A stretch of 64,000 bases of DNA, taken from NCBI GenBank assembly GCA_002840555.1, contig PHBJ01000005.1, positions 303,577 to 367,576 on the forward strand, given 5' to 3'. The notes beneath the pieces were generated by a model, which saw only the letters and a list, made by a program, of their open reading frames with translations, made no database searches and was not told where the DNA came from. This DNA comes from Deltaproteobacteria bacterium HGW-Deltaproteobacteria-13. GTDB taxonomy: Bacteria; Desulfobacterota; Syntrophia; Syntrophales; Smithellaceae. The position numbers and the translations under genes are program-made. Shown piece after piece: positions 4,177-54,203 of the stretch (position 1 is the first letter of the stretch; every line of letters begins with the position of its first letter).

Positions 4177-4287
4177 TTCCCCTCCCCTGGAGGGAGGGGA
4201 TAAAGGGGAGGGGGTAATTTTGTTTTTCAACCGACATACGCCAGTCTTCACCCTCACCCTAACCCTCTCCCCTCAAGGGAGAGGGAA
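4177..4287. repeat. REP-like inverted pair of palindromic units (divergent subtype)
   Basis: Left unit ttcccctcccctggagggaggggataaaggggaggggg. The reverse complement of the right unit is ttccctctcccttgaggggagagggttagggtgagggtgaa, giving the same hairpin-plus-G-tail layout. Confidence 0.8.
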
Positions 4288-11896: not shown

Positions 11897-11932
11897 TTCC
11901 CCTCTTTCCTAAAGAGGGGTTAGGGGAGATTT
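11897..11932. repeat. Single REP-like palindromic unit
   Basis: ttcccctctttcctaaagaggggttaggggagattt differs at 2 of 36 positions from the reverse complement of the unit at 50171-50206. Confidence 0.9.
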
Positions 11933-49216: not shown

Positions 49217-50019
49217 TGCGCATAGAAAATTAGATGATCGGACGGCTTTTCAACAAGTCTTGATTCCAAATCAATCGTGCAGCTTTTTGATTTTGCGGCA
49301 AGCAATTTTGTCGCCAGCATATGATCAACCCGCCAGCCCAGCTTGCGCCTTACCGAATCCTTGACGCGATAATCATAAAAAGTATATTGACCGGGAACAC
49401 CGGGATGATGTTTGCGGAAGACATCCGTGAAGCCCCATGATTTAACATCTTCGTATGCCTTCCAAACTTCAGGATTAAAACATACGTGTCCCAATATTCT
49501 TTTCGGGTCGTGAACATCTATCGCTTCCGGCGCGACGTTAAGATCGCCGCACCAGATTATTTCATTTTGCGGCTGAAAATGCTTCTGCAGATATTTCTTG
49601 AAACGCGCGAACCACTCCAGTTTATAGGCGAATTGCGGGCTCTCGATTTCCTGGCCCTGCGGGACATAGGTATTGATGATCGTCAGGCCATTATATGCTG
49701 CGACGATCAAACGATCCGGATCGGCAGGTTCGCTGTCGAAGCCAAAAGTGACTTTCTGCGGTTTTTGTTTCGATGCGATGGCCACGCCTTTATACTGCTT
49801 ATCGCCTTTAAAAACGACATGATAACCAAAAGCCTCGAACTCGGCAGCGGGAAAGCCGGCATCGGCGACTTTGGTTTCCTGCATGCAGAAATAATCGGGG
49901 CTGTTTTTTTGCAGCCAGGGCATAACAATATGCATGCGGGAACGGATGGAATTCACATTGTAAGTAGCGATCTTCAAATTAAGCGCCGCCTTTCGTAAAT
50001 TATTGGTGATTAATATCAC
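49210..50019 (-). CDS. xth: Exodeoxyribonuclease III (start probably TTG at 49977)
   Basis: '[10 protein letters not shown]', 'MQETKV', 'YVPQG', 'GDLNVA', 'GWRVDH', 'SDH'. Confidence 0.95.
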
Positions 50020-50115
50020 GGCCGAAGGCTGCGCTCAAGTTTTTTTGCTCCGGCCATTAAAATCTTGTATATTCTTAAAATATGTTACTGTAGAAGTACA
50101 TTGCTGTTATTAACA

Positions 50116-50206
50116 TCCCCCTTTTGCAAAGGGGGATGAAGGGGGATTTTTCAATCAATTCAATTTCGTAAAATCTCCCCTAACCCCTCTTTAAAAAAGA
50201 GGGGAA
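50116..50206. repeat. REP-like inverted pair (copy C)
   Basis: tcccccttttgcaaagggggatgaagggggattt ... aaatctcccctaacccctctttaaaaaagaggggaa. Confidence 0.9.
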
Positions 50207-50234
50207 TTGAACAGTCGGATTTGGAGTTGGAGAC

Positions 50235-51329
50235 ATGGAGAAAGTAGATATTACCATCATAGGTGCCGGCGTAATCGGGCTGTCCATTGCCGCCGAAATG
50301 GCCCGGCCGGATTTAAACGTCTTTATTTTGGAAAAGAATCCCACGTATGGCGGCGGCATCAGTTCCCGCAACAGTGAAGTCATACACAGCGGAATATATT
50401 ATCCTGACGGGTCTTACAAAGCTTCTCTTTGCGTTGCCGGAAACAAAATGCTCTATGATATTGCTTCTGCAAACAAGATTCCTCATAAAAGAACGGGGAA
50501 ACTAATCGTCGCAATAAAAGACGAAGAAATGGAAGAACTCGAACGCCTTTACGCTAATGGCCGGAAAAACGGCGTCACGTCGATATCGATGATCAGCAAA
50601 AAACAAATTGCCCGAATGGAACCAAATGTTCGTGCCCGGGCGGCTCTTAGCTTATCCGATACCGGCATTATCAGCGTTCATGATTTAATGAATTATTTTT
50701 TAGCCGGGGCTCAAAGCAGGAAGGCTCATATTGTTTATCAAACGAAAGTCGTGCGGATAGAAAAGGAATCGGACCGCTACCGGATTTTCACCCGTAATGA
50801 GAAAGGAGAAAACTTCGAATTTTCTTCCGCCATAGTTATCAATGCCGCCGGCCTGGAATCCGACACCATCGCCAACATGATCGGGACGAATTATCATCTG
50901 CATTACTGCAAGGGCGATTATTGCAGTGTTTCGAGAGTAAAACCGGGAATGGTGCAAAGGCTGATTTATCCGGTTCCGCCAAATAATCATGTCGGCCTCG
51001 GCGTTCATTTAACATTGGATTTAAATGGACGGTTTAAACTCGGCCCGGACACAACTTACATCGACCGCCGGGAAGACTATCGGGTCGCGGAAGAAAAAGC
51101 TGATCTTTTCTATCAAAGCGCCGTAAAATTTCTGCCTTTTATAAAAGCAGATAAGGTCCATCCCGACATGTCCGGCATAAGACCTAAATTACAGGGGCCT
51201 GATGAAGATTTCCGTGATTTTGTCATTAAAGAAGACTCTTCCGGGTTCATCAATCTTGTCGGGATTGAATCACCGGGAATGACCGCATCTCCCGCCATCG
51301 CGCAGTTTGTAAAAGCAATGTTATTTTAA
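50235..51329 (+). CDS. FAD-dependent oxidoreductase, L-2-hydroxyglutarate oxidase (LhgO)-like
   Basis: GAGVIG, 'SSRNSEVIHSGIYY', 'GVHLT', 'SGIRPK', 'GIESPGMTASPAIA'. Confidence 0.88.
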   Translation: MEKVDITIIGAGVIGLSIAAEMARPDLNVFILEKNPTYGGGISSRNSEVIHSGIYYPDGSYKASLCVAGNKMLYDIASANKIPHKRTGKLIVAIKDEEMEELERLYANGRKNGVTSISMISKKQIARMEPNVRARAALSLSDTGIISVHDLMNYFLAGAQSRKAHIVYQTKVVRIEKESDRYRIFTRNEKGENFEFSSAIVINAAGLESDTIANMIGTNYHLHYCKGDYCSVSRVKPGMVQRLIYPVPPNNHVGLGVHLTLDLNGRFKLGPDTTYIDRREDYRVAEEKADLFYQSAVKFLPFIKADKVHPDMSGIRPKLQGPDEDFRDFVIKEDSSGFINLVGIESPGMTASPAIAQFVKAMLF

Positions 51330-51336
51330 AGGGAAC

Positions 51337-51419
51337 TTCCCCCTTTCATAAAGGGGGATTGAGGGGGATTTTTCATTTCTATAAAATCCTCCCTAACCCT
51401 CCTTTAGAAAAGGAGGGAA
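51337..51419. repeat. REP-like inverted pair (copy D)
   Basis: ttccccctttcataaagggggattgagggggattt ... aaatcctccctaaccctcctttagaaaaggagggaa. Confidence 0.9.
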
Positions 51420-51519
51420 TAAATGGATTCAATATTATTCTTCTCTTTTTCATTGACAGCACCCTGCCCTTCCCTTATAACCTGTGACAAAATATAGAAG
51501 CAGAAAGCAGGAGATATCT

Positions 51520-52683
51520 ATGAAAAAATCGACATTACTCATTATTCTTTTAACAATTTTCCCGCTGGGCATTTTGGGCTGCGGCGACGATTCTTCCAAA
51601 ATCAAAATCGGTGTTATTGCCGAACTGACCGGTGATGTTCCGGCCGTAGGCGCATCCTGTAAAAACGCGGCGGAAATGGCCGTAGCGGAAGTCAACGACG
51701 CCGGTGGTATTCAGTTGGGCGACAAGAAATATAAAATCAAATTAATTATCGAGGACAACGCCGGGAAGGCCGATCAATCGGCATCCTCCGCGCAAAAACT
51801 GATCACACAGCAAAAAGTCACGGCCATTGTCGGTCCCAACGCCAGCCGCTACGCTCTGCCTGCCGCGGAAATTGCCGAATCGGGCAAAGTTGTATTGATT
51901 ACCCCCTGGTCCACCGCTCCTAAAGCCACGCTGGATTCCAAAACAGGCGCTTCCAAAAAATATGTTTTCCGCGCATGTTTTATCGATCCATTCCAGGGAC
52001 GGGTTCTGGCGAAATTTGCGTTGGACGATCTCAAACTGAAAAAAGCGGCTGTTCTTTATGACGTGGCTTCCGAATATAATAAAGGCATTGCCGAATTTTT
52101 CAAGGAAGTCTATGAGCAGAATGGCGGCAAAGTCGTCGCGTTTGAAACCTACACGACCAACGATAAGGATTTTTCATCCCAGCTGACCAAAATCAAAAAA
52201 GCGGCGCCGGATGTTATTTTCCTGCCCAACTATTACAGCGAAGTGCCTTTGCAAATTCAGCAGGCCAAGCGGCTGGGCATCACAGCACCCTTTATTGGCT
52301 CTGACTCCTGGGGGTCCGAAGAGCTTTTGAAACTTTGCGGCAAGGACTGCAACGATTATTATTTCAGCACGCATTACGCAGCCGACGCATCGACTGACAC
52401 CACGAAGAAATTCATCGCGGCTTATAAAGCGAAATTCGGCACCACGCCCGATGACGTGGCCGCTCTGACCTATGACTCCTTCGGACTGCTGTGGCAGGCT
52501 CTCAAAACCGCCGGGAAGAATGACCGCCAGGCCGTGCGCGACGCGCTGGCTAAAATTCCGCAATATGAAGGTGTTACCGGAAACATGCAGTTCAAAGAAG
52601 GCTCCGGCGACCCGGTCAAGAGCGCGGTAATTTTAAAAATAAAGGATGGGAAGTTTACGTGGTTTGCCAACGCCAAACCATGA
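51520..52683 (+). CDS. livK: Branched-chain amino acid ABC transporter substrate-binding lipoprotein
   Basis: Lipobox-like ILGC, 'IKIGVIAELTG', 'FRACFIDPFQG', 'YDSF'. The ORF track starts at 51484. Confidence 0.88.
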   Translation: MKKSTLLIILLTIFPLGILGCGDDSSKIKIGVIAELTGDVPAVGASCKNAAEMAVAEVNDAGGIQLGDKKYKIKLIIEDNAGKADQSASSAQKLITQQKVTAIVGPNASRYALPAAEIAESGKVVLITPWSTAPKATLDSKTGASKKYVFRACFIDPFQGRVLAKFALDDLKLKKAAVLYDVASEYNKGIAEFFKEVYEQNGGKVVAFETYTTNDKDFSSQLTKIKKAAPDVIFLPNYYSEVPLQIQQAKRLGITAPFIGSDSWGSEELLKLCGKDCNDYYFSTHYAADASTDTTKKFIAAYKAKFGTTPDDVAALTYDSFGLLWQALKTAGKNDRQAVRDALAKIPQYEGVTGNMQFKEGSGDPVKSAVILKIKDGKFTWFANAKP

Positions 52684-52734
52684 TGTAACGGCTTATTAAA
52701 AAGCTCATTAAAAGTAATTTCCCCACTTTTAATC

Positions 52735-52815
52735 TCCCCCTTTCTTAAAGGGGGATTAAGGGGGATTTAATTTTTCACAAAATCCTCCCTAACCCTCCTT
52801 TAAAAAAGGAGGGAA
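52735..52815. repeat. REP-like inverted pair (copy E), directly upstream of DUF559 gene
   Basis: tccccctttcttaaagggggattaagggggattt ... aaatcctccctaaccctcctttaaaaaaggagggaa. Confidence 0.9.
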
Positions 52816-52837
52816 TAATAATGTAAGGTATTTTTGA

Positions 52838-53206
52838 ATGCTGCCTTTCGAAAGGAAGCTTAAACCTCTTGCCCGTAATTTAAGAAACAACATGACTGAT
52901 GCCGAGCAGTTTATCTGGTCGAAAATCAGGAGAAAACAGATAAACAATGTACAGTTCTATCGGCAAAAAAATATAAGTCATTTCATAGTAGATTTTTACT
53001 GTCCAAAAGGAAAACTAGTTATAGAGGTAGACGGTGGACAGCATTATGATAAAGAGGGGTCTGAGAAAGATCAGATTAGAGATAGATATTTAAAAGAACT
53101 TGGATTAACCATTATGCGTTTTTCTGATATCGATGTTCTTAAAAATATTGATGGGGTACTTGAAAGCATTCATGAGCATTTAAAAATCTCCCTTAAGATA
53201 TCTTAA
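52838..53206 (+). CDS. DUF559 / Vsr-like (PD-(D/E)xK) endonuclease
   Basis: 'ARNLRNNMTDAE..IW..IR..QI....FYRQ..I..FIVDFYC....LVIEVDGGQH...D..RD.YL..LG..IMRF'. Visibly more AT-rich than the surrounding liv genes. Confidence 0.93.
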   Translation: MLPFERKLKPLARNLRNNMTDAEQFIWSKIRRKQINNVQFYRQKNISHFIVDFYCPKGKLVIEVDGGQHYDKEGSEKDQIRDRYLKELGLTIMRFSDIDVLKNIDGVLESIHEHLKISLKIS

Positions 53207-53225
53207 AATGGGGAACACATAATTA

Positions 53226-53304
53226 TCCCCCTTTGCTAAAGGGGGATACAGGGGGATTTGAATAAAAATCCTCCCCAGCCCTCCTTTAGAAAAGAAGGGA
53301 GGAA
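53226..53304. repeat. REP-like inverted pair (copy F), directly downstream of DUF559 gene
   Basis: tccccctttgctaaagggggatacagggggattt ... aaatcctccccagccctcctttagaaaagaagggaggaa. Confidence 0.88.
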
Positions 53305-53327
53305 TAAGGAAACTTTGTATTCAAACT

Positions 53328-54203
53328 ATGGCTTATATTTTTCAACAAGCTCTTAACGCCCTGCAACTGGGAAGTATCTACGCTCTCATCGCCCTGGGCT
53401 ACACCATGGTCTATGGCATTTTGACGATGATCAACTTCGCCCACGGCGATCTGTTCATGGTCGGCGCTTTCTTTTGTTTTCTCATTGCTTTTTATCTGCA
53501 TCTCTCGTTTGTTCCGACGCTTCTTTTATCCATGACGGGCGTGGCATTTTTAGGCGTGGTCATTGAACGGCTCGCGTATAAACCGCTGCGCAACGCCCCG
53601 CGCGTTTCCGCCATCATCACCGCGCTGGGCGTCGGCCTCTTTCTGGAAAATTTCACACTGGCTCTTGCGCCCTATCCCAAACATATTCCTACGCTTCTGG
53701 AAAACACGACCTGGACGCTGGGGACTCTTTCCATTTCTTCTCTGCAGATTATCGTCATTGTCCTTTCGCTTGTTTTGATGCTGATTCTTGATTTTATTGT
53801 GCAGCGAACAAAAGCGGGGATGGCCATGCGCGCCATTTCCTGGGACAAGACGATTGTCCCGCTGATGGGCGTGCCGGTTAATAAAATCATTTCGCTTACT
53901 TTTGCCCTGGGCACGGGCCTGGGGGGAGCTGCCGGGATGATGTACGGGCTGGCCTATCCGGTAATTGATCCCTATATGGGCATCATGGTCGGCTGGAAAG
54001 CATTTATCTGCGCCGTGGTTGGCGGCATCGGCAATATTCGCGGAGCCATGATCGGCGGTTTTATCCTGGGCGGTGTGGAAATTATGGTAGCCGCATTCTT
54101 CCCCTCCACCTATCGTGATTTTGTGGCCTTCACGCTGCTTCTTGTTCTATTAATCGTCAGGCCTTATGGAATTCTGGGTAAACCCCAGCCGCAAAAGGTG
54201 TAG
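53328..54203 (+). CDS. livH: Branched-chain amino acid ABC permease
   Basis: 'GSIYALIALGYTMVYGIL..INFAHGD', 'KAFICAVVGGIG'. Confidence 0.93.
   Translation: MAYIFQQALNALQLGSIYALIALGYTMVYGILTMINFAHGDLFMVGAFFCFLIAFYLHLSFVPTLLLSMTGVAFLGVVIERLAYKPLRNAPRVSAIITALGVGLFLENFTLALAPYPKHIPTLLENTTWTLGTLSISSLQIIVIVLSLVLMLILDFIVQRTKAGMAMRAISWDKTIVPLMGVPVNKIISLTFALGTGLGGAAGMMYGLAYPVIDPYMGIMVGWKAFICAVVGGIGNIRGAMIGGFILGGVEIMVAAFFPSTYRDFVAFTLLLVLLIVRPYGILGKPQPQKV

Follow-up and report, generated by a model that had tools for sequence, protein, structure and literature searches.

A DUF559 nuclease gene with intrastrand-triplex-type repeats at a livK-livH junction: a candidate nuclease-repeat partnership

In this work we analysed a 64,000-nucleotide stretch of DNA (the window, C6:303577-367576) from the 3.5-Mb, 29-contig, Smithella-like genome of Deltaproteobacteria bacterium HGW-Deltaproteobacteria-13. 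Between livK and livH, two genes of a branched-chain amino-acid transporter, the window carries a gene for a small nuclease of the DUF559 family that is accompanied by short structured repeats (hereafter units; Table 1). A first-pass annotation of the same DNA had proposed that the nuclease recognises or nicks these units and disperses copies that lack the gene, in parallel with the RAYT transposases and their REP sequences. Our comparisons within the source genome, with its relatives and across several phyla revealed a physical linkage between DUF559 genes and units of matching type, and make the nuclease a candidate for the enzyme that acts on them.

The nuclease gene and the livK-livH junction

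The 122-residue product of the gene matched the Pfam DUF559 model over profile positions 2-108 of 109 (E=1.1e-33). At 34.1% GC the gene is considerably richer in AT than livK (49.7% GC), livH (51.6%) and the genome as a whole (45.7%). The junction that it interrupts is empty in three congeners (G003, G014 and G011), in which livK and livH are separated by only 6 bp (TTTAAT), so that both the description of an AT-rich gene lying in this junction and the expectation of relatives with an empty junction were borne out. In the closest relative by LivK (G019, 92%) the gap is 84 bp and holds a solo unit of the R type described below, and other congeners have unrelated small elements there. Exactly two DUF559 genes were found in the source genome, the window copy and one at C19:73569-73922 that is 49% identical to it; a possible third copy on C23 was rejected, its weak tblastn match (E=0.001) falling in an unrelated open reading frame (ORF).

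Among the nuclease families that await characterisation, DUF559 is a large one. Residues D52, E63, D65 and H69 of the window protein are retained in at least 99% of 163 homologues and the ratio of nonsynonymous to synonymous substitution (dN/dS) was 0.08-0.2; by these measures the gene is under purifying selection, with its predicted catalytic residues intact. The DUF559 structure PDB 3HRL matched the protein (E=1.6e-17) and was also the best fold match of its AlphaFold model (predicted local distance difference test, pLDDT, 90), followed by the catalytic domain of I-Bth0305I and then by the nuclease domains of PvuRts1I and AbaSI, with TnsA matching weakly. The Foldseek match to I-Bth0305I (3R3P) had E=2.4e-4 and TM-scores of 0.62/0.76, and this homing endonuclease is, on the predicted model, the closest characterised fold. 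Vsr was absent from the top fold matches of the model, and Pfam assigned the protein to DUF559 and not to Vsr (PF03852). A role as a Vsr very-short-patch repair endonuclease was rejected on that assignment and on the neighbours, which are livK and livH rather than a Dcm-type methyltransferase gene. A role in anti-phage defence was rejected as well, PADLOC having given only partial fold-level matches (DpdF, mREase_II) of ~50-80 residues for a gene that lies inside a transporter operon. No transposase family matched the protein in Pfam. A published survey of PD-(D/E)XK enzymes puts DUF559 in a group with Vsr and I-Bth0305I (PMC3424549), and one table row of another study has DUF559 14-fold enriched among predicted inversion targets (PMC9881135). 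In the literature mentioning DUF559 we found no link between the family and the repeats, and we found no published description of the pairing.

Both flanks of the gene carry an inverted pair of units (hereafter a doublet), and a degenerate unit lies in its last codons (53184-53215), just as the first-pass annotation had placed them; the gene-less copies at 11899, 50116 and 51338 and the second subtype at 4178 were likewise recovered. The two flanks are direct repeats of each other (D1/D2, 83-88% identity), each internally an inverted pair, and nhmmer gave E=5.6e-11 and 2.5e-10 for the units of the downstream doublet (53226-53301). Four doublets occupy four consecutive gaps between 50.1 and 53.3 kb.

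Table 1. Genes, repeat units and related features at and around the livK-livH junction (window coordinates).
Feature	Position	Strand	Remarks
Type-B (BoxC-like) doublet	4178-4285		Includes the unit 4251-4285 (-)
Solo type-A unit	11899-11931	+	CCCCTCTTT cct AAAGAGGGG tta GGGGAGATT
Gene-less L+R doublet upstream of the oxidoreductase gene	50116-50204		R arm of GAGGGG subfamily
Gene-less L+R doublet between the FAD oxidoreductase gene and livK	51338-51417
livK-like substrate-binding gene	51484-52683		Branched-chain amino-acid transporter
TTCCCCACTTT	52719-52729	+	Complementary to AAAATGGGGAA at 53205-53215 (pair I10)
L-type unit of upstream gene-less doublet	52735-52767	+	TCCCCCTTT ctt AAAGGGGGA tta AGGGGGATT
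R-type unit of upstream gene-less doublet	52781-52813	-	Purine arm GGAGGG
Possible remnant of the cassette's own L end (low confidence)	52822-52837	+	..AAGGTATTTTTGA before ATG; only tail recognisable
DUF559 (Vsr-fold, PD-(D/E)xK) nuclease gene, 122 aa, intact	52838-53206	+	Pfam PF04480
Decayed R end of the cassette	53184-53215	-	Overlaps last codons and stop; inverted-repeat pairs I8, I10
L-type unit of downstream gene-less doublet	53226-53258	+	Inverted-repeat scan, nhmmer
Imperfect R-type unit of downstream doublet	~53264-53301	-	Inverted-repeat scan, nhmmer
livH permease gene	53328-54203		LivH model match; branched-chain amino-acid transporter

The intact doublets with which the first-pass annotation had bracketed the gene proved, on comparison with relatives, not to be its own ends. 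In G002 and G005 the gene forms a cassette of ~417 bp, composed of an L unit, 2-22 nt and the ATG and ORF, with the last codons and stop inside an inverted R unit. This L-gene-R layout is retained in L004, a metagenome-assembled genome (MAG) whose protein is 85% identical and whose gene occupies the same livK-livH site. In L004, G002 and G005 the ORF ends within an intact R unit at the position that matches 53184-53215; the window unit has kept the third block (AAATCTCCC) and the TTA spacer, and its hairpin arms are broken. L004 and G006 carry GAGGGGGATTTGA-ATG where the window has 52822-52837. Among 83 cases from many genomes, the usual order is L(+), gene, R(-) (67 cases), and the order of the window, in which the intact units nearest the start codon and after the gene point the wrong way (-,+), occurs in only six. 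The orientation statistics and the cassettes of the relatives rule out the intact doublets as the gene's own termini. Because their orientation is atypical, and because it is the decayed unit at 53184-53215 that forms the R end belonging to the cassette, the doublets are separate from the cassette: as far as sequence can tell, its own ends have decayed, and the intact doublet to either side arrived later, as a separate insertion into a local hot spot.

The turnover of small elements in this operon was also visible in its relatives. The gaps of congeners that correspond to 52684-53327 and 51330-51484 of the window (L183-L195) are hot spots for several unrelated small elements, one of which is ~200 bp long and begins GGCTTGTTAAAAAGCTCAT, a start that it has in common with the left flank of the window; the gaps also hold CCGGCATGACAAAA-type GC hairpin repeats and a tandem array resembling (CACCATTCACC)n. 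The doublet at 51338-51417 is missing from the orthologous gap of G003, G014 and G016. In G021 (L184) this gap holds an L+R doublet in the opposite orientation to that of the window, and the right-hand flank, AATAAATGGA, is common to the two genomes; this reflects either an independent insertion at one site or an inversion in place. The type A cassette of G002 and G005 lies at a different site, which is empty in the source genome. Finally, TTCCCCACTTT and AAAATGGGGAA, separated by 475 bp, stand around the upstream doublet and the gene, and each joint has TTAA. They look like two hairpin arms that an insertion has parted, possibly a hint of rearrangement around the cassette.

Design and census of the repeat units

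Each unit consists of a pyrimidine arm, a loop of 2-5 nt and the purine arm complementary to the first, followed after a spacer of 3 nt by another purine block. This third block mirrors the purine arm, with T allowed opposite A (GAGGGG/GGGGAG, GGAGGG/GGGAGG). Such a mirror repeat is meaningless for ordinary duplex-binding proteins and marks an intrastrand purine-motif triplex. Our test of the mirror design began with an unbiased detection of hairpins and only afterwards compared the third block with a mirror and a direct model, using the purine-motif rules (G.G, A.A, T.A). The third blocks of the source genome gave 50 mirror, no direct and 17 tied outcomes, and those of 162 loci from other genomes gave 213 mirror and 18 direct. 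The repeats had been described as a palindromic family of the gene's own; their third block, a mirror copy, instead identifies them by sequence as members of the published BoxC/PIT/TM class of intrastrand-triplex motifs. BoxC/PIT/TM repeats have been known since the early 1990s, and their literature reportedly includes work by Bergler in 1992 and by Hoyne and Maher in 2000 and 2002; to our knowledge, they have been without a known enzyme for 30 years.

Two types of unit occur in the window. Type B units agree with the TMECO consensus, CCCTCNCCC N3-6 GGGNGAGGG N3 GGGNGAGGG (PMC4666352), and the one at 4251-4285 (-), CCCTCTCCC ttgag GGGAGAGGG tta GGGTGAGGG, is nearly identical to TMECO no. 2 (CCCTCTCCCTTGAGGGAGAGGGTTAGGGTGAGGGT). 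Type A units, TCCCCCTTT nnn AAAGGGGGA nnn AGGGGGATTT, follow the block design and not the TMECO letters, and we regard them as an A/T-clamped variant of the BoxC/PIT/TM design that lies outside the TMECO consensus. A third clade of DUF559 proteins has a third unit, TCCCCC gctggc GGGGGA tta AGGGGG. The units of E. coli also pair subtypes A and B in inverted tandem (Holder et al. 2015, PMC4666352). A known RNA was rejected as an explanation for the repeats, a search of 49900-53500 against Rfam with permissive filters having returned only generic hairpin matches far below gathering scores.

A structural detector identified 83 units fitting the three-block rule in the source genome (47 of type A and 36 of type B), compared with seven in a reversed-genome control. 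The genome has 22 convergent doublets with spacers of 4-26 bp between the half-sites. All 16 type-A doublets combine one G5A (L type) unit with one GAGGGG or GGAGGG (R type) unit, and they split into two subfamilies with related spacers. Identity among copies is 95-99% in the three blocks and 51-65% in loops and spacers, and because the blocks are so much more identical they are under constraint, either in place or in each round of copying. No convincing similarity was detected between the doublet spacers and the ends of the DUF559 genes, and the idea that the spacers are remnants of those ends was rejected.

Of 2940 ORFs of at least 100 residues, only four are bounded by units on both sides; two of these four are the DUF559 genes. 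There is one DUF559 paralogue per repeat family, the window copy (A clade) with type A units and the C19 copy (B clade) with type B units. The latter is bracketed in the order L(+), gene, R(-) and is enclosed by the sole convergent long-spacer pair of the source genome. The DUF559 gene is the coding core of a cassette of ~420 bp with two different intrastrand-triplex-type ends; gene and ends are gained, lost and transferred together as one unit, and the dispersed L+R doublets, which have the polarity of the cassette, are gene-less derivatives resembling MITEs (miniature inverted-repeat transposable elements).

A RAYT/HUH transposase was considered as the true partner of the units and rejected. 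The genome has one clear PF01797 gene (on C14), which has different 26-bp inverted repeats of its own, and a weak second match on C3, with no triplex unit near either. A stretch of C21 rich in repeats, examined in the same connection, proved to be the trp operon. The C14 gene (C14:165700-166500, L001) encodes a 222-residue Y1/HUH protein (RAYT/TIRYT-like), is flanked by the inverted repeat GAATTCGGGGGACATAACACTCAATT and adjoins an Rhs-like toxin tip; it is unrelated to the triplex units, and is an internal control rather than a rival partner.

DUF559 genes and repeat units in other genomes

Two scans of species-representative genomes yielded 160 loci with relatives of the two paralogues, from Cyanobacteriota, Bacteroidota, Pseudomonadota, Thermodesulfobacteriota, Nitrospirota, Calditrichota, Patescibacteria and other phyla. 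Over the 162 loci that were analysed, a unit lies within 130 bp of 135 of the 165 DUF559 genes, and on both sides of 81; conversely, 261 of 420 units (62%) sit in the 7.6% of sequence that flanks DUF559 genes. Repeats reaching from flank to flank were found at 61% of 77 DUF559 genes and at 3% of 183 control ORFs from the same loci (p=3e-18), which, together with the ORF census of the source genome, confirms the earlier suggestion that DUF559 genes are more often repeat-flanked than other genes. Where adjacent units are spaced 150-1500 bp apart, a DUF559 gene lies between them in 96 of 120 pairs, and the other 24 include only three convergent pairs.

The type of unit varies with the protein. 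When repeat class (A/T-clamped or BoxC-like) was mapped on the protein tree, four changes were required versus ~39 after shuffling, as the first-pass annotation had foreseen. The C19 clade scored 74 of type B and none of type A, and the window clade 45 of type A and 13 of type B. Host phylogeny partly confounds this match between clade and repeat class, and single genomes with two or three paralogues control for it: in the congeners and order-level relatives every A-clade gene occurs with A units and every B-clade gene with B units, and in G028 an A gene lies 1 kb from a B gene and each is accompanied by units of its own type.

These associations bear on a reading in which the units spread without any dedicated enzyme, through slippage at folded DNA, recombination or a host factor, and DUF559 is a small selfish or addictive gene that became a passenger between them, with the co-variation reflecting only linkage during horizontal transfer. 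Studies of the E. coli BoxC repeats found no protein partner and tied the motif itself to local genomic instability (PMC4666352, in whose main text the words 'endonuclease' and 'ycjD' are absent), some repeat-rich genomes have no detectable gene (G019, G035 and G024), and the junctions are hot spots for several unrelated small elements, all of which such a reading would explain. A passive carrier should hold varied cargo, however, and DUF559 is the only gene found in the spacer position across phyla. Also, the strict L/R polarity common to cassette and doublets argues for a common origin, as do the clade-specific unit types inside one genome. The purifying selection on a gene with an intact active site likewise counts against a passenger, which we consider improbable.

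DUF559 genes are mainly chromosomal: the family was found in 40 of 72,556 plasmid records, mostly megaplasmids, and in two phage records, and carriage by plasmids or phages was accordingly rejected as an explanation. The closest relative of the window protein (88% identical) lies on a contig of 1036 bp that consists of units and the gene, in a Bacteroidales bin (L005). This contig is probably mis-binned, and illustrates how repeat-bounded cassettes are lost from MAGs.

E. coli YcjD (b1289, NCBIfam NF007294) is closer to the C19 paralogue, with 49% identity, than to the window copy, with 35%. A degenerate BoxC-like block forms the end of the ycjD ORF, and ~175 bp further downstream TMECO no. 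9 is found; the ends of the E. coli copy have decayed. In the K-12 sequence (NC_000913.3:1349800-1353200, L201) a degenerate second copy of the 3' end of ycjD (...ETVLENIRQGLNRPS) is also present downstream, before TMECO no. 9. In other E. coli phylogroups the fabI-sapF site of ycjD holds eefRABCD (PMC12817139), and we found no published function for ycjD in papers that mention the gene.

A nuclease proposed to act on its own repeat family

Potentially, the DUF559 nuclease is the trans-acting partner of its own unit family, an enzyme-substrate link to which the sequence comparisons lead us to give even odds. A nuclease acting on its own family is the most economical explanation because the doublets keep the polarity of the cassette and no other cargo or enzyme is associated with them. 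The nuclease would recognise the three-block unit, whether this is folded in a single strand or presented as a pseudo-palindrome in duplex DNA, and would cut there, after which host replication or repair would copy, keep or rearrange the units. The copying must fall to the host because a PD-(D/E)xK enzyme cannot rejoin DNA. At the locus studied here, the cassette would have entered the livK-livH junction, its own ends having decayed since. A fuller and more tentative reading, to which we assign a probability of roughly 0.35, is that DUF559 and the triplex repeats form an undescribed nuclease-repeat partnership, mobile or domesticated, in which the Vsr-fold nuclease reads a triplex-capable end of three blocks, every clade of the nuclease has co-evolved a block code of its own, and cutting drives the copying, upkeep or rearrangement of doublets. 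By analogy, the relationship is probably RAYT/REPIN-like in its logic, with a chemistry closer to that of a nicking or homing endonuclease. The single gene copy beside many empty doublets, the many solo units and the conserved blocks favour RAYT-like action in trans; the fold, the position of the gene in a doublet spacer and the pattern of synonymous divergence favour homing.

The latter features can be read in another way, namely that the nuclease, probably as a dimer, is the product of a homing-type selfish gene and cuts the centre of a gene-less doublet, where inverted third blocks stand 4-26 bp apart, and that repair on the template of a gene-bearing copy then brings the gene in by means of the L and R units as short homology arms. 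The doublets would then be the targets of the nuclease and not its products, and would have spread by other means. I-Bth0305I, the nearest characterised structure, is an EDxHD homing endonuclease that acts as a homodimer on a pseudo-palindromic site (PMC3239194), and the gene lies exactly at the doublet spacer, where its insertion would split the presumed site, as is the case for homing endonuclease genes. Synonymous divergence (dS) between the window and L004 was 0.48 for the cassette, 1.25 for livK and 0.83 for livH; for the B cassette and its flanks it was 0.57 versus 0.94 in one pair and 2.3 versus 0.75 against G016. The cassette and its flanks have diverged to different degrees, which suggests that it turns over at fixed sites, as homing would produce, with the estimates coming from only ~100 codons. 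Active homing, on the other hand, should have filled the 16-22 unoccupied doublets that accompany one gene copy per family, the spacer between half-sites varies in length, and the spread of doublets and of many solo units to new sites is left unexplained. For these reasons we think homing of this kind unlikely to be the whole relationship between the gene and its units.

Gene presence and unit load were compared in 41 relatives, in a test that ignores phylogeny and uses patterns derived from the source genome. All 12 genomes with a strong DUF559 match had at least three pattern matches, with a median of ~19 units, and the 29 without a strong match had a median of one (Mann-Whitney p=1e-5; within the genus, p=2e-4). 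The expected correlation of repeat copy number with gene presence was thereby upheld in the medians, and it failed for repeat-rich genomes in which no gene was detectable, the clearest being G019 with 27 units. The same correlation could arise if the nuclease were a structure-specific repair factor that nicks or resolves folded units which stall replication, so that loaded genomes keep a matching nuclease for maintenance and not for dispersal. PIT elements block DNA polymerase in vitro (literature summarised in PMC4666352), the blocks are conserved in place, and the gene is single-copy, is under purifying selection and stays at one locus, the hemB/radical-SAM site, in 4-5 genomes of several species. 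Nevertheless, a repair role explains neither why the gene lies precisely where it does, with an L end on one side and an R end on the other, nor its AT-richness and patchy distribution among phyla, nor how repeat-rich genomes manage without it, and we hold it to be very unlikely.

A number of observations weigh against a nuclease that acts on and disperses its own units. Several genomes have many units and no detectable gene: G019, which is 100% complete, has 27, G035 and G024 have 11 each, and G010 and G015 have eight each. In addition, 125 type-A units were counted in G007, a 2.8-Mb congener whose only DUF559 copy is truncated or divergent; many of these units are at contig ends, and they represent an assembly artefact or else a burst of units in a genome with no obvious gene. 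Gene absence in repeat-rich genomes is weak evidence because fragmented MAGs would lose repeat-bounded cassettes of 0.5 kb. Within the source genome, the commonest solo type-B unit (TCCCTCCC...) is unlike either end of the B cassette found there. Neither a target-site duplication nor a target motif was detected at the flanks of the doublets or between filled and empty sites, where the intergenic flanks have diverged. We know of no way in which a PD-(D/E)xK nuclease rejoins strands, so that copying must rely on host steps, and we only infer the binding or cutting of units by any DUF559 protein and every step of the copying. Moreover, co-variation is also expected from the mere linkage of a passenger gene, and conservation of the blocks in place could reflect a role of the repeats at the level of the host, without the nuclease.

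Comparison with known systems underscores both the familiar and the unusual features of the cassette. It shares with the published BoxC/PIT/TM repeats their three-block design, their occurrence as solo units and as inverted pairs that combine two subtypes, their intergenic location and their link to variable loci; it differs in that published work names no protein partner, whereas here each family has a cognate DUF559 gene alongside. The parallel to REPtrons (RAYT/REPIN) drawn in the first-pass annotation stands in the layout, a single-copy gene between inverted structured repeats with gene-less doublets dispersed, in there being one gene per family and several families per genome, and in purifying selection on a gene that is often at one locus among relatives. 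It breaks down at the enzyme, since RAYT is a Y1 HUH protein (PF01797) and the window protein an unrelated PD-(D/E)xK nuclease without the covalent rejoining chemistry of HUH enzymes, and at the repeat, a three-block triplex motif with two different ends and not a simple palindrome. EDxHD or Vsr-like homing endonucleases (I-Bth0305I, PMC3239194; 'fractured genes', PMC2677866) have the acidic/His motif in common with the window protein (E63, D65, H69), as well as a selfish, patchy distribution and a gene placed centrally in a pseudo-palindromic DNA element. In contrast to them, the window protein is a free-standing single domain of 122 residues without extra DNA-binding domains or an intron or intein, and its gene is tied to a dispersed repeat family and not to one conserved host-gene target. 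Insertion sequences and MITEs likewise have two distinct inverted ends, and short gene-less copies that keep both in the same polarity, but here there is no DDE, serine, tyrosine or HUH transposase, there is one coding copy per genome, and no target-site duplication was seen at the diverged intergenic flanks.

The DUF559 nuclease is, in our view, the best candidate for the enzyme of the BoxC/triplex repeats. If this is true, it would be the first protein partner for the BoxC/PIT repeats, which E. coli and hundreds of other genomes carry, and triplex-capable DNA would be a recognised enzyme substrate in vivo. RAYT/REPIN would also be joined by a second, independent nuclease-repeat partnership, one with a different chemistry and DNA structure. 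Having two paralogues and two families of repeat, the source genome amounts to a natural experiment on specificity; one relative has both cassettes 1 kb apart.

A further observation concerns the C19 cassette, which is in frame with the downstream radical-SAM gene, giving an open frame of 505 residues that runs through a translated R unit (L002:1462-2979, equivalent to G000:C19:73569-75086). The frame could reflect a genuine fusion at the N terminus, translational coupling or chance, stop codons being scarce in such G-rich DNA. A frame of this type is open in G003 and G016 too, and the linkers are 45, 37 and 26 residues long.

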